A stretch of 7,246 bases of DNA from Escherichia coli (GTDB lineage Bacteria; Pseudomonadota; Gammaproteobacteria; Enterobacterales; Enterobacteriaceae): the NCBI RefSeq assembly GCF_003334765.1, contig NZ_QOWT01000061.1; one strand, 5' to 3'. A program made the translations under genes and the position numbers. The notes under the pieces are model-generated. The model had not been told where the DNA came from, did no database searches, and saw only the letters and a program-made list of their open reading frames with translations. Positions 2,731 through 5,378 of this stretch are shown piece after piece (within the stretch, counting starts at the first letter, position 1; the number at the start of each line of letters is the position of its first letter).

Positions 2731-2867
2731 TTCATAAATCATAATTATGAATTGTGATTTATTCTGTAAAAAAAGAGACCACTGCAATATGTGATCTCTT
2801 GTATGCAAGGGGGCTTAAACAGTATGAATTCACAAGTGTGATTTCATAAGTAATAACTTATTGATTA
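2731..2867. repeat. AT-rich centromere-like region downstream of parB (parC2-like)
   Basis: 12-bp palindrome TCATAATTATGA at 2739-2750. TGTGAT hexamers at about 2754, 2790 and 2838. The 13-mer TGTGATTTCATAA at 2837-2849 is identical to a copy at 3917-3929 in the parA/parM intergenic region. Confidence 0.5.
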
Positions 2868-3143
2868 TTACGTTAGTGTTTTTAAGTATTGCTCAAGGGC
2901 TACTCTGACGATGGCACTTACATTTTTTGGATCTTTACCATTGCGTTTATTCCTCAATGCCAGATCTTCTATTGTGACAAGCATGCTTTCACCAAGAGAG
3001 ATTGTCGTCCGACATTGTTTTTCTGGTTCGGGTTTTTCCGGCGCGCCGTATGGTTTATCCGCAAGGCGCTGAGCCAGAGCCTCTGCTTGTTCTACCGTAA
3101 CTGCAGCTCTGTTTAATGCTTGCTGGCTGGGTTTCTTCACCAT
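2868..3143 (-). CDS. parB: Small partition/centromere-binding protein ParB of a type Ib system (pB171 par2-like)
   Basis: 91-aa ORF directly downstream of parA, its ATG overlapping the parA stop (ATGGTGA). The ribbon-helix-helix assignment is by analogy with ParG-type proteins, not a recognised motif. Size and position match pB171 ParB as I recall it. Confidence 0.8.
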   Translation of the reverse strand: MVKKPSQQALNRAAVTVEQAEALAQRLADKPYGAPEKPEPEKQCRTTISLGESMLVTIEDLALRNKRNGKDPKNVSAIVRVALEQYLKTLT

Positions 3144-3781
3144 GGGCCAAATACCTCATTCATTAAATGTTCAATTTCTGCTTTGGCTGCTGTATTGTTC
3201 GTTTCTACTACACCGGTGCCGTTGCTCATGCAATCGCGATAGACTTTTCTGAAACAAATAACTGAATCAAGGACTTGAATTGTTGGGAATTCTTCAAGAT
3301 ATTCAAGGAATTCTTTTCTCTCATTTCCCCTCAAAACCGGATTGGTTGTTGCCATACTTTGTAAACAATAAACCTTAAGTTCCGGGTTAAGGTTACGCAT
3401 TGCGTCTATCTGTTGTTCTAGTTCTGTAAGAGTATCCAGATCTGGTTGAGAACACTGTAGTGGCGCAATTATTTGATGTGCGACAACTCCACTCGTTATG
3501 AATTCCTTTGAGTTTCTTCCTGCGACATCCACTATTACATCATCGAACTTTTCATTCAGAGCCTGTAGTGTTTGTGTCAGGTTATCAAATTTCTCAACAA
3601 GGGTTATTGCTGGTAACAGTCCTGCAGCTTCTCGTTCCGCATGATGTTTTGCGGCTGTTCGTTGTAGATCTCCGTTTAACAGGCAGACTTCCCTTCCTTT
3701 ATTTGCGAGAGCAATAGCCAGGTTTGATGCAATGGTAGTTTTCCCTGAACCACCTTTGTTCCCACCAACTACAGTAATCAT
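3137..3781 (-). CDS. parA: Walker-type partition ATPase ParA (type Ib, no N-terminal HTH extension)
   Basis: 214-aa ORF with a deviant Walker A (GGNKGGSGKTT, i.e. KGGxxK[ST]) at residues 6-16 and a Walker B-like DDVIVDVAG. A GAGGT Shine-Dalgarno lies 5 nt before the ATG. Confidence 0.92.
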   Translation of the reverse strand: MITVVGGNKGGSGKTTIASNLAIALANKGREVCLLNGDLQRTAAKHHAEREAAGLLPAITLVEKFDNLTQTLQALNEKFDDVIVDVAGRNSKEFITSGVVAHQIIAPLQCSQPDLDTLTELEQQIDAMRNLNPELKVYCLQSMATTNPVLRGNERKEFLEYLEEFPTIQVLDSVICFRKVYRDCMSNGTGVVETNNTAAKAEIEHLMNEVFGPW

Positions 3782-4009
3782 TGCAACCTCATAAATGTGA
3801 TGTGTGAAGTATGATGATATTTTGACACGGTAACCTGAGGTGTCAATATGTGTTCATATTTATGAAGTATGAAATATGAAGTGTGTCATGTGATGTAATA
3901 AATAATACTTGTGTTTTGTGATTTCATAACTATGATAGTGCTCAAATTGAGTATTACCTTGCAACCAGAAACAATGATTTACTCAGATTGAGTATTTAAG
4001 GGGCTATAG
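3782..4009. promoter_or_regulatory. Shared centromere/promoter region between divergent parA and parM (parC1-like)
   Basis: 228-bp AT-rich divergent intergenic region. TGTGAT and ATGAAGT repeats at 3789-3900. TGTGATTTCATAA at 3917-3929. A 16-bp direct repeat CTCARATTGAGTATTW at 3941-3956 and 3982-3997 lies just upstream of the parM RBS (AAGGGG, 3998-4003). Confidence 0.6.
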
Positions 4010-4981
4010 ATGAACGTATACTGCGATGATGGTTCAACAACAATCAAGTTGGCATGGAATGATAATGGGGAAATCTGTAAGTCGTTGTCGCAAAACTCAT
4101 TTCGTCATGGATGGAAGGTTGACGGGTTAGGAATTCGCCAGACATTTAACTATGAACTGGATGGTAAAAAATACACGTATGATGAAGTTAGCAACCAATC
4201 TATTCTTACGACTCATATTGAGTATCAATATACGGATGTTAACCTGTTAGCTGTGCATCACGCTTTACTGAATAGTGGATTAGCGCCTCAGCCTGTATCA
4301 TTGACTGTGACTTTGCCTATCAGTGAGTTCTATACGAAAGAGTGTCAAAAAAATGAACTCAACATTCAGCGTAAAATTGAGAATTTAATGAGGCCGATTC
4401 GTCTTAATAAAGGCGATGTTTTCACCATTGAACACGTTGATGTGATGCCTGAATCATTGCCAGCTGTGTTTTCTCGTCTGGTCGTGGATAAAGTTGGTCA
4501 GTTCGAAAAATCGCTGGTAGTTGATATTGGCGGCACTACGCTTGATGTTGGTGTTATCGTTGGTCAATTTGACTCTGTAAGTGCCATTCATGGTAATTCT
4601 GGCATTGGTGTGTCTTCAGTTACGAAAGCTGCAATGAGTGCATTGCGCATGGCATCCAGTGATACCAGTTTCCTCGTTGCAGATGAATTGATTAAACGTC
4701 GTAATGACCCGGACTTTGTTCGGCAGGTTATAAATGACGAAACAAAAACTGATCTGGTCCTTAATACCATTGAGGGGGCTATTGCCAGTTTGGGGGAGCA
4801 AGTAGTCAATGAGCTCGGTGATTTCCATCATGTGAATCGTGTTTATGTTGTCGGTGGTGGGGCCCCGTTGATCTATGATTCGATAAAAACGGCATGGCAC
4901 CATCTTGGGCAAAAAGTAGTGATGATGGAGTCGCCACAGACAGCACTGGTTGAAGCTATCGCGGCTTTCAAAGAGGAGTAA
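4010..4981 (+). CDS. parM: Actin-like partition ATPase ParM/StbA (type II)
   Basis: 323-aa ORF with actin-fold nucleotide-binding motifs: VYCDDGSTTIKLAW (phosphate 1), VVDIGGTTLDVGV (phosphate 2) and VYVVGGGAPLIY (adenosine). It aligns along its length with R1 ParM / R100 StbA as recalled. Confidence 0.92.
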   Translation: MNVYCDDGSTTIKLAWNDNGEICKSLSQNSFRHGWKVDGLGIRQTFNYELDGKKYTYDEVSNQSILTTHIEYQYTDVNLLAVHHALLNSGLAPQPVSLTVTLPISEFYTKECQKNELNIQRKIENLMRPIRLNKGDVFTIEHVDVMPESLPAVFSRLVVDKVGQFEKSLVVDIGGTTLDVGVIVGQFDSVSAIHGNSGIGVSSVTKAAMSALRMASSDTSFLVADELIKRRNDPDFVRQVINDETKTDLVLNTIEGAIASLGEQVVNELGDFHHVNRVYVVGGGAPLIYDSIKTAWHHLGQKVVMMESPQTALVEAIAAFKEE

Positions 4982-4985
4982 TATT

Positions 4986-5378
4986 GTGGACGATGAACGG
5001 AAAAGGAAAAAATACACACTTTATCTGCATCCGGAAAAAGCTGCAGACTTTCAAACTTTGGAAGCGATAGAGTCCGTTCCGCGTTCTGAGCGTGGTGAGC
5101 TGTTCCGGAATGCATTTATTTCTGGAATGGCGTTACACCAACTTGATCCTCGCCTGCCTGTATTGCTGACTGCCATTTTGAGCGAGGAGTTTTCAGCAGA
5201 TCAGGTTGTAACCTTACTCAGTCAGACGACTGGATGGAAGCCTTCTCAGGCCGATATCAGAGCTGTGTTGACTGAACTCGGTGCTTCGCAATCTGCTGAA
5301 AAAATGCCTCCTTCTGCTACTGATTCGGTGCAGGAGGCAATGAATGATGTGCGTCTTAAAATGAAAAAATTATTCTGA
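4986..5378 (+). CDS. parR: Centromere-binding adaptor ParR/StbB of the type II system
   Basis: 130-aa product from a GTG at 4986, preceded by an AAAGAGGAG Shine-Dalgarno and starting 5 nt after the parM stop. The tool ORF begins at 4950, inside parM. The N-terminal region resembles R1 ParR (VPRSERGELFRNAFISGMALHQLDPRLP vs IPQGERSRLNRAALTAGLALYRQDPRTP). Confidence 0.85.
   Translation: MDDERKRKKYTLYLHPEKAADFQTLEAIESVPRSERGELFRNAFISGMALHQLDPRLPVLLTAILSEEFSADQVVTLLSQTTGWKPSQADIRAVLTELGASQSAEKMPPSATDSVQEAMNDVRLKMKKLF

Follow-up and report, generated by a model that had tools for sequence, protein, structure and literature searches.

Within a 7,246-bp stretch of Escherichia coli DNA (contig NZ_QOWT01000061.1, hereafter the window), we find what is almost certainly an intact copy of a pB171-type double partition (par) locus, carried on an IncF plasmid resembling pAA. 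Two gene pairs diverge from one AT-rich region, with parA and parB read leftward and parM and parR read rightward. The E. coli virulence plasmid pB171 reportedly carries such a double par locus (Ebersbach and Gerdes 2001; Ringgaard et al. 2007), comprising par1 (parMR), par2 (parAB) and the centromere regions parC1 and parC2, and we use these names throughout. This architecture had been proposed in an earlier reading made from the sequence alone (the original prediction), and it is borne out by the identity of ParR, by published parC2 primers and by gene order. The same reading called the configuration known rather than new, which is also correct, given the pB171 literature and its frequency among plasmids: pB171-type double partition is already known and very common.

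The most direct evidence comes from comparison with pB171 itself. The parR product matches PDB 2JD3, deposited under the name 'StbB protein' and corresponding to pB171 ParR (PMC3074162), at 129 of 130 residues over its full length (E 4.5e-80), the sole difference being A116 in place of V. At the other end of the locus, primers FS36 and FS35, which amplify parC2 from a pB171 par2 plasmid as a fragment that restores par2 function (PMC4270457), match the window at all 70 of their pB171-specific nucleotides (31 + 39) with 0 mismatches. Because of this match, the second repeat region, downstream of parB, can be identified as the parC2 of pB171; primer FS35 also contains the final codons of ParB (KTLT-stop). 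The cloning of pB171 par2 made use of an AscI site for swapping the 3' part of parB, and ParA was seen as a band of ~24 kDa (PMC4270457), in agreement with an AscI site at 3040 inside parB of the window and a calculated ParA mass of 23.5 kDa. The literature further describes the type I and type II loci of pB171 as adjacent, with one common regulatory region (PMC6519299), as had been predicted here, and reports arrays of ParB sites on either side of parAB, upstream as well as downstream (PMC7602700), and two ParR repeats upstream of parM (PMC9426499).

The coordinates of the locus are collected in Table 1. All four par genes are present as full-length open reading frames (ORFs), parB and parA leftward and parM and parR rightward, and each of the four is preceded by a Shine-Dalgarno-like sequence. 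The spacer between the start codons of parA and parM is exactly 228 bp, the predicted length, with a GC fraction of 0.32; the region from the resD stop (2730) to the parB stop, 2731-2867, has a GC fraction of 0.28, as compared with 0.4-0.6 in neighbouring genes. The ATG of parB overlaps the stop codon of parA by 7 nt (ATGGTGA), a junction that suggests translational coupling. For parR, the longest ORF reported by the program opens at TTG 4950 (142 aa), a start that is ruled out by the end-to-end match of 2JD3 from GTG 4986; because of that match we place the start at GTG 4986, which is preceded by AGAGGAG and lies 5 nt past the parM stop.

Table 1. Features of the double par locus and its surroundings (window coordinates; a dot marks features without assigned strand)
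Feature	Position	Strand	Description
parB	2868-3143	-	91 aa, centromere-binding protein of par2; predicted ribbon-helix-helix at ~45-90, conserved basic N-terminal tail
parA	3137-3781	-	214 aa, 23.5 kDa, type Ib Walker-box partition ATPase
parM	4010-4981	+	323 aa, actin-like ATPase of par1
parR	4986-5378	+	130 aa, GTG start, ribbon-helix-helix adaptor of par1
parC1	3782-4009	.	shared 228-bp region; putative sites for ParB and for ParR, and the putative promoters of both operons
Four ParB heptads	3789-3816	.	between putative parA -10 element and parA ribosome-binding site, operator-like position
Promoter-like site for parAB	3819-3846	-	TTGACA, 16 nt, CAAAAT, with TG extension; from consensus scan
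Thirteen contiguous ParB heptads	3847-3937	.	T at position 1 in 13 of 13
Putative ParR box 1	3940-3955	+	GCTCAAATTGAGTATT; 70 bp upstream of parM ATG
Putative ParR box 2	3981-3996	+	ACTCAGATTGAGTATT; 29 bp upstream of parM ATG
Candidate third ParR-type box	4211-4230	+	ACTCATATTGAGTATCAATA; inside parM, codons 68-74; candidate distal ParR site
parC2 heptad array	2725-2871	.	21 heptads in one register, both orientations; period-7 autocorrelation 0.42
parC2 per pB171 experiments	2706-2885	.	FS36 at 2706-2736 (+), FS35 at 2847-2885 (-); overlaps last codons of resD and parB
Terminator-like hairpin for parAB transcript	2773-2800	-	10-bp stem, then T run; from consensus scan, putative function
vapBC	146-801	-	maintenance module left of par locus
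ccdAB	1395-1920		maintenance module left of par locus
resD	1921-2730		resD-type tyrosine recombinase, multimer resolution

The original prediction had named the four products as a 214-aa type Ib ParA, a 91-aa type Ib ParB, a 323-aa actin-like ParM and a ParR, all of which stand, with the ORFs where it placed them. ParA carries a deviant Walker A motif, KGGSGKT, at residues 9-15 and has no N-terminal extension; the position of the motif leaves no room for an N-terminal DNA-binding (helix-turn-helix, HTH) domain. Its best full-length structural relatives in the PDB are the type Ib ParF of TP228 (4dzz, residues 8-210, E 1e-7) and a 214-aa ParA (E ~1e-7), and its Pfam matches are CbiA, MipZ and VirC1. 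Judged by its sequence, with this size, a deviant Walker A motif and no HTH domain, the protein is a small Walker-type ParA of type Ib. ParM matches Pfam StbA_N (1.1e-64) and the ParM C-terminal domain (6.4e-44), and its residues 2-295 align with R1 ParM structures in a PDB search (E 4e-76), while ParR matches Pfam Plasmid_stab_B (1.1e-29), so that Pfam and PDB agree for the rightward pair. A scan of NCBIfam gave only a distant PRTRC_D match for ParM, and no NCBIfam family matched ParR or ParB.

ParB is likely to have a ribbon-helix-helix (RHH) fold, with a signature that is weak but consistent. An alignment of 26 homologues, 47-89% identical, displays a conserved N-terminal tail (MVKKPSQQA) and an invariant RTTISL, after which come two conserved helices that carry the motifs NKR and SA..R. 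The AlphaFold monomer (pLDDT 74) is modelled with an extended segment ahead of two helices, 52-68 and 75-90, and pB171 ParB is treated as an RHH protein (PMC2441792). A single-sequence search of the PDB with ParB returned nothing meaningful. The lengths of ParA and ParB, 214 and 91 aa, are presumably also those of their pB171 counterparts.

Both AT-rich regions are arrays of hexamers spaced with a 7-bp period, each reading TRTGAW or its complement [AT]TCA[CT]A. Exact copies number 11 in parC1 and 9 in parC2, against means of 2.6 and 1.1, respectively, in dinucleotide-preserving shuffles of the same regions (n = 5000), none of which attained the observed count for either region; the remaining 6838 bp of the window contain 20 copies. 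Self-similarity peaks at lags of 7, 14 and 21 within the arrays and coding controls have no such peaks, while the first heptad position is T in 30 of 31 heptads. The repeat arrays are not a product of chance. In parC1 the heptads total 17 (4 + 13), the same number of ParB repeats that Ringgaard et al. (2007) are said to have counted there; the primary work on pB171 reportedly gives 17 and 18 ParB repeats, along with cross-repression of the parM promoter by ParB. The block of four heptads at 3789-3816, TCATACTTCACACATCACATTTATGAGG, is conserved in a related Enterobacter locus and closely similar in one from Providencia, and both of these loci have a TTGACA/TATAAT-type site at the place equivalent to the putative parAB promoter.

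In parC2 the clear hexamers cluster at the two ends, 2725-2773 and 2823-2871, where T occupies position 1 in 13 of 14 heptads, and the terminator-like hairpin of the parAB transcript sits between the two clusters. A second AT-rich repeat region had been predicted downstream of parB; its presence is confirmed, but its extent must be revised, since the functional parC2 of pB171 corresponds to 2706-2885 and not to 2731-2867. The resD-proximal half of parC2 (2732-2804), made up of one heptad cluster and the hairpin, directly follows resD-like integrase genes in ~540 plasmids that have no parAB; plasmids of the ColBM type are among those with this half-site. In two of these that we examined (L002, 3001-3073; L003, 3001-3070), a colicin M immunity gene comes next and similarity breaks at window position ~2804. 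This half is either an orphan half-centromere or a sequence belonging to the resD module, a question that leaves the main conclusion unaffected because the experimental parC2 fragment of pB171 includes it.

Close to parM lies a different kind of repeat. Two 15-nt direct repeats, CTCA(A/G)ATTGAGTATT, are found 41 bp apart at 3941-3955 and 3982-3996, and each upstream ParR box takes the form of a near-palindrome, ACTCA-N3-TGAGT. From their positions at -70 and -29 relative to the ATG, these boxes presumably overlap the parM promoter. We infer the individual promoter and box assignments in this copy from its sequence.

Diverged relatives of the locus, gathered through homologues of ParB and compared across nine lineages, provide a further line of evidence. 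In plasmids of Enterobacter, Salmonella, Photorhabdus and Providencia, parMR and parAB still diverge from each other, with ParB 70-86% and ParM 66-79% identical to those of the window, while plasmids of Aeromonas salmonicida, Salmonella diarizonae and Erwinia have parAB alone. A plasmid of Edwardsiella tarda (CP084513; L014, 1603-4294) combines a parAB relative with a divergent R1-type parMR, its ParM being 42% identical to that of the window; this pairing suggests either an exchange of the parMR partner or more than one origin of the double arrangement. The parA gene of the Edwardsiella plasmid is split into two ORFs of 115 and 85 aa. In all nine lineages the ParB hexamer occurs 8-12 times per 250 bp upstream and 3-9 times per 170 bp downstream of parAB, compared with 0.7-3.3 times per kb elsewhere, and in Providencia there are ten perfect tandem TATGAAT heptads downstream of parAB. 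Each of the five loci that have a pB171-type parMR carries boxes of the form ACTCA-N3-TGAGT upstream of parM, near -70 and -30, and Providencia has one more at -104; such boxes are found in none of the three parAB-alone loci, nor in the one locus with an R1-like parMR. Because each repeat co-occurs with its cognate proteins, there is support independent of the literature for assigning the heptads to ParB and the palindromic boxes to ParR. The same ParB hexamer is thus used from Aeromonas to Escherichia, and the ParR boxes track the pB171-type parMR.

Several results weigh against reading the locus as a complete pB171-type system. The direct sequence ties to pB171 consist of ParR and the parC2 primers; for ParA and ParB the agreement is indirect, through the ParA mass, the AscI site in parB and the ParB codons in primer FS35. 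Against NCBIfam NF041546 (ParA_partition), ParA scores 117 bits over residues 7-209, where the cutoff is 180. The RHH signal of ParB is weak (Pfam RHH_1, E 0.0038, residues 45-88), and a PDB search with its family profile picks up CopG and the EndoAI antitoxin in the correct register, at sub-threshold E values of 0.06-0.2. A Foldseek search with the AlphaFold monomer of ParB gave no significant match, which is expected because RHH is an obligate-dimer fold. A scan for the sigma-70 consensus found no parM promoter. Candidates for this promoter inspected by hand, TTGAGT-17-AACAAT and TTGCAA, were weak and were not adopted.

Some of these results bear on an alternative in which the leftward pair encodes a MipZ- or MinD-like positioning ATPase and a CopG-type regulator, leaving parMR alone to segregate the plasmid. 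Such a view would agree with the names that databases give to these exact proteins (AAA family ATPase, MipZ, CopG regulator, hypothetical protein), as well as with the score of ParA below the ParA_partition cutoff. The MipZ and CopG names are automatic labels, however, and not tests, and the best full-length structural relatives of ParA are the plasmid partition ATPases ParF and ParA. The ends of the flanking repeat region match the parC2 fragment of pB171, which makes par2 functional again on a test plasmid (PMC4270457), and ParB-type heptad arrays occur on both sides of the parAB operon in nine lineages. We therefore regard this alternative as extremely improbable.

Scarcely more probable is the possibility that the locus is a decayed relic, one of whose two par systems no longer works in this copy because sites were lost or substitutions have disabled it. 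Its surroundings are indeed rearranged (1979 bp are deleted at 6240/6241, and the right end carries an IS3-family transposase), ParR is one residue away from 2JD3 (A116 for V), and the Edwardsiella relative has a split parA. Yet the window has four full-length ORFs with ribosome-binding sites, its repeat arrays and boxes are all intact, its DNA is 99.9% identical to many complete plasmids, and each of the exact proteins is found on at least 1000 contigs, making decay very unlikely. An intact pB171-type double par locus remains by far the better description.

The manner in which the two systems would operate follows from work on pB171. For par2, dimers of ParB would bind the heptad-spaced hexamers cooperatively, both at parC1, upstream of and overlapping the parA promoter, and at parC2; the ParB-coated DNA would stimulate nucleoid-bound ParA-ATP, and gradients or oscillations of ParA would then space plasmid copies evenly over the nucleoid. 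ParB is known to bind its arrays cooperatively and to pair centromeres without ParA (PMC2441792, PMC3074150), and ParA distributes plasmids carrying ParB/parC at even spacing over the nucleoid (PMC4270457). By binding around the parA promoter, ParB would in addition autoregulate the operon, and the upstream ParB array has been described as serving transcriptional regulation as well (PMC7602700). For par1, ParR on the two boxes just upstream of parM would repress the parM promoter, and the ParR complex, a helical scaffold like other ParR/parC complexes (PMC5016525), would capture the ends of ParM-ATP filaments that push sister plasmids apart. These biochemical steps are taken from the pB171 literature and would hold here by analogy; the present analysis contributes the gene content, the repeat anatomy, the co-occurrence of repeats with cognate proteins and the near-identity to pB171 reagents.

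One feature of the locus may go beyond this established picture. A perfect ACTCA-N3-TGAGT box, ACTCATATTGAGT, lies at 4211-4223 within parM, covering codons 68-72 (THIEY), and is followed by a 3' extension, ATCAATA; together, box and extension agree with the upstream-box consensus, CTCANATTGAGTAT, at all 13 specified positions. The box begins 201 bp inside the gene, ~230 bp (~22 helical turns) from the promoter-proximal box, and recurs at +201 in each of the five parM genes of pB171 type (the window, L004, L007, L015 and L017), which are 65-71% identical in nucleotide sequence; it is absent from the R1-like parM of the Edwardsiella plasmid. Among 172 degenerate codons with an invariant amino acid in these genes, only 15 are invariant as codons, and five of the 15 are codons 68, 70, 71, 72 and 73. 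Five invariant codons fell within one six-codon window in 6 of 20,000 permutations. The longest invariant nucleotide run of parM is 4217-4230, a length attained in 16 of 5000 shuffles of codon order. The one variable base in the box (CAT/CAC) lies in the spacer of the palindrome, and the codons used in the box are not strongly preferred in the five genes.

Selection at the DNA level on this intragenic box is well supported by these comparisons. That the pB171-type par1 has a third, intragenic ParR site is a more tentative proposal, which we raise as a possibility somewhat short of probable. Among the papers searched, none that names pB171 together with ParR and ParM mentions an intragenic site, the primary pB171 papers being outside that search. 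If the proposal is true, ParR at the intragenic box could loop the DNA to the upstream boxes, tightening repression of parM or enlarging the complex that captures filaments. The conserved box is the sole item here with some novelty, and it offers a modest new handle on the build-up and regulation of the ParR complex.

The locus is widespread. Among the 72,556 records of PLSDB, at identity of at least 95%, the parC2-parB-parA-parC1 half is found (coverage of at least 80%) in 991 and the parM-parR half in 976, while a segment across both (window 2600-5500) is found in 982 (~1.4%), indicating that the two halves travel together. The carriers are mostly conjugative IncF plasmids of Escherichia, Salmonella, Klebsiella and Shigella. 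Public annotation labels ParA as 'AAA family ATPase' or 'division plane positioning ATPase MipZ', and ParB as 'hypothetical protein' or 'CopG family transcriptional regulator'; since these RefSeq and GenBank labels never refer to partition, the par2 half is systematically under-annotated. A large group of IncF plasmids, of the virulence and resistance kinds, owes its stable inheritance to the double par locus. For the most part the analysis confirms textbook plasmid biology.

The best full-window matches are pAA-ST131 and its relatives (99.8-99.9% identity), plasmids of the pAA-type IncFIB/IncFII, and the plasmid of E. coli 55989 is also among them. About 5 kb of the window is given over to plasmid stability (vapBC, ccdAB, resD and the par locus). 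To the right of the par locus come fragments of umuC and of a DUF1281 gene, as well as an IS3-family transposase, itself a fragment at 6604-7243 on the minus strand. Relative to pAA-ST131 (NZ_KY706108), 1979 bp are missing at the junction 6240/6241; the loss takes in umuD and a dinI-like gene together with the 5' parts of umuC and of the DUF1281 gene, and leaves a 253-aa umuC fragment (5410-6171, minus strand) fused next to the DUF1281 3' end. Base 105 is where similarity to pAA-ST131 begins; bases 10-104 correspond, in inverted orientation, to another part of that plasmid. The par locus is therefore located in a rearranged stretch bounded by insertion sequences.

Of the known partition systems, the double par locus of pB171 is the closest in every respect. 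It has in common with the window its gene order and orientation, the pair of ParR boxes ahead of parM and the ParB arrays, one in the shared region and the other downstream of parB; the window differs in its host replicon, which is of the pAA-type IncFIB/IncFII, and in one substitution in ParR, and nothing differs in kind. The parMRC (stbAB) system of R1/R100, the type II archetype, likewise has an actin-like ParM, a small downstream RHH adaptor and repeats upstream of parM, around the promoter or, in the window, around its presumed place. However, the ParR of the window belongs to a different branch of the sequence family, two near-palindromic boxes (with one more inside the gene) take the place of the ten 11-bp iterons of R1/R100, and the region upstream of parM is, unlike that of R1/R100, common to a second par system. 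On the side of par2, the delta/omega system of pSM19035 and ParF/ParG of TP228 similarly combine a small Walker ATPase with a small protein that has a flexible N-terminal tail and an RHH domain, a domain likely in ParB as well. PDB searches with ParB, by single sequence and by profile, found no detectable similarity to omega or ParG. The sites of omega, like the ParB sites described here, are made up of 7-bp heptads that adjoin one another, run in both orientations and overlap a promoter, and the omega heptad, WATCACW (PMC3074150), has almost the same core as the [AT]TCA[CT]A of the window. Unlike these type Ib systems of pSM19035 and TP228, par2 has its arrays on both sides of one operon, in a proteobacterial host.

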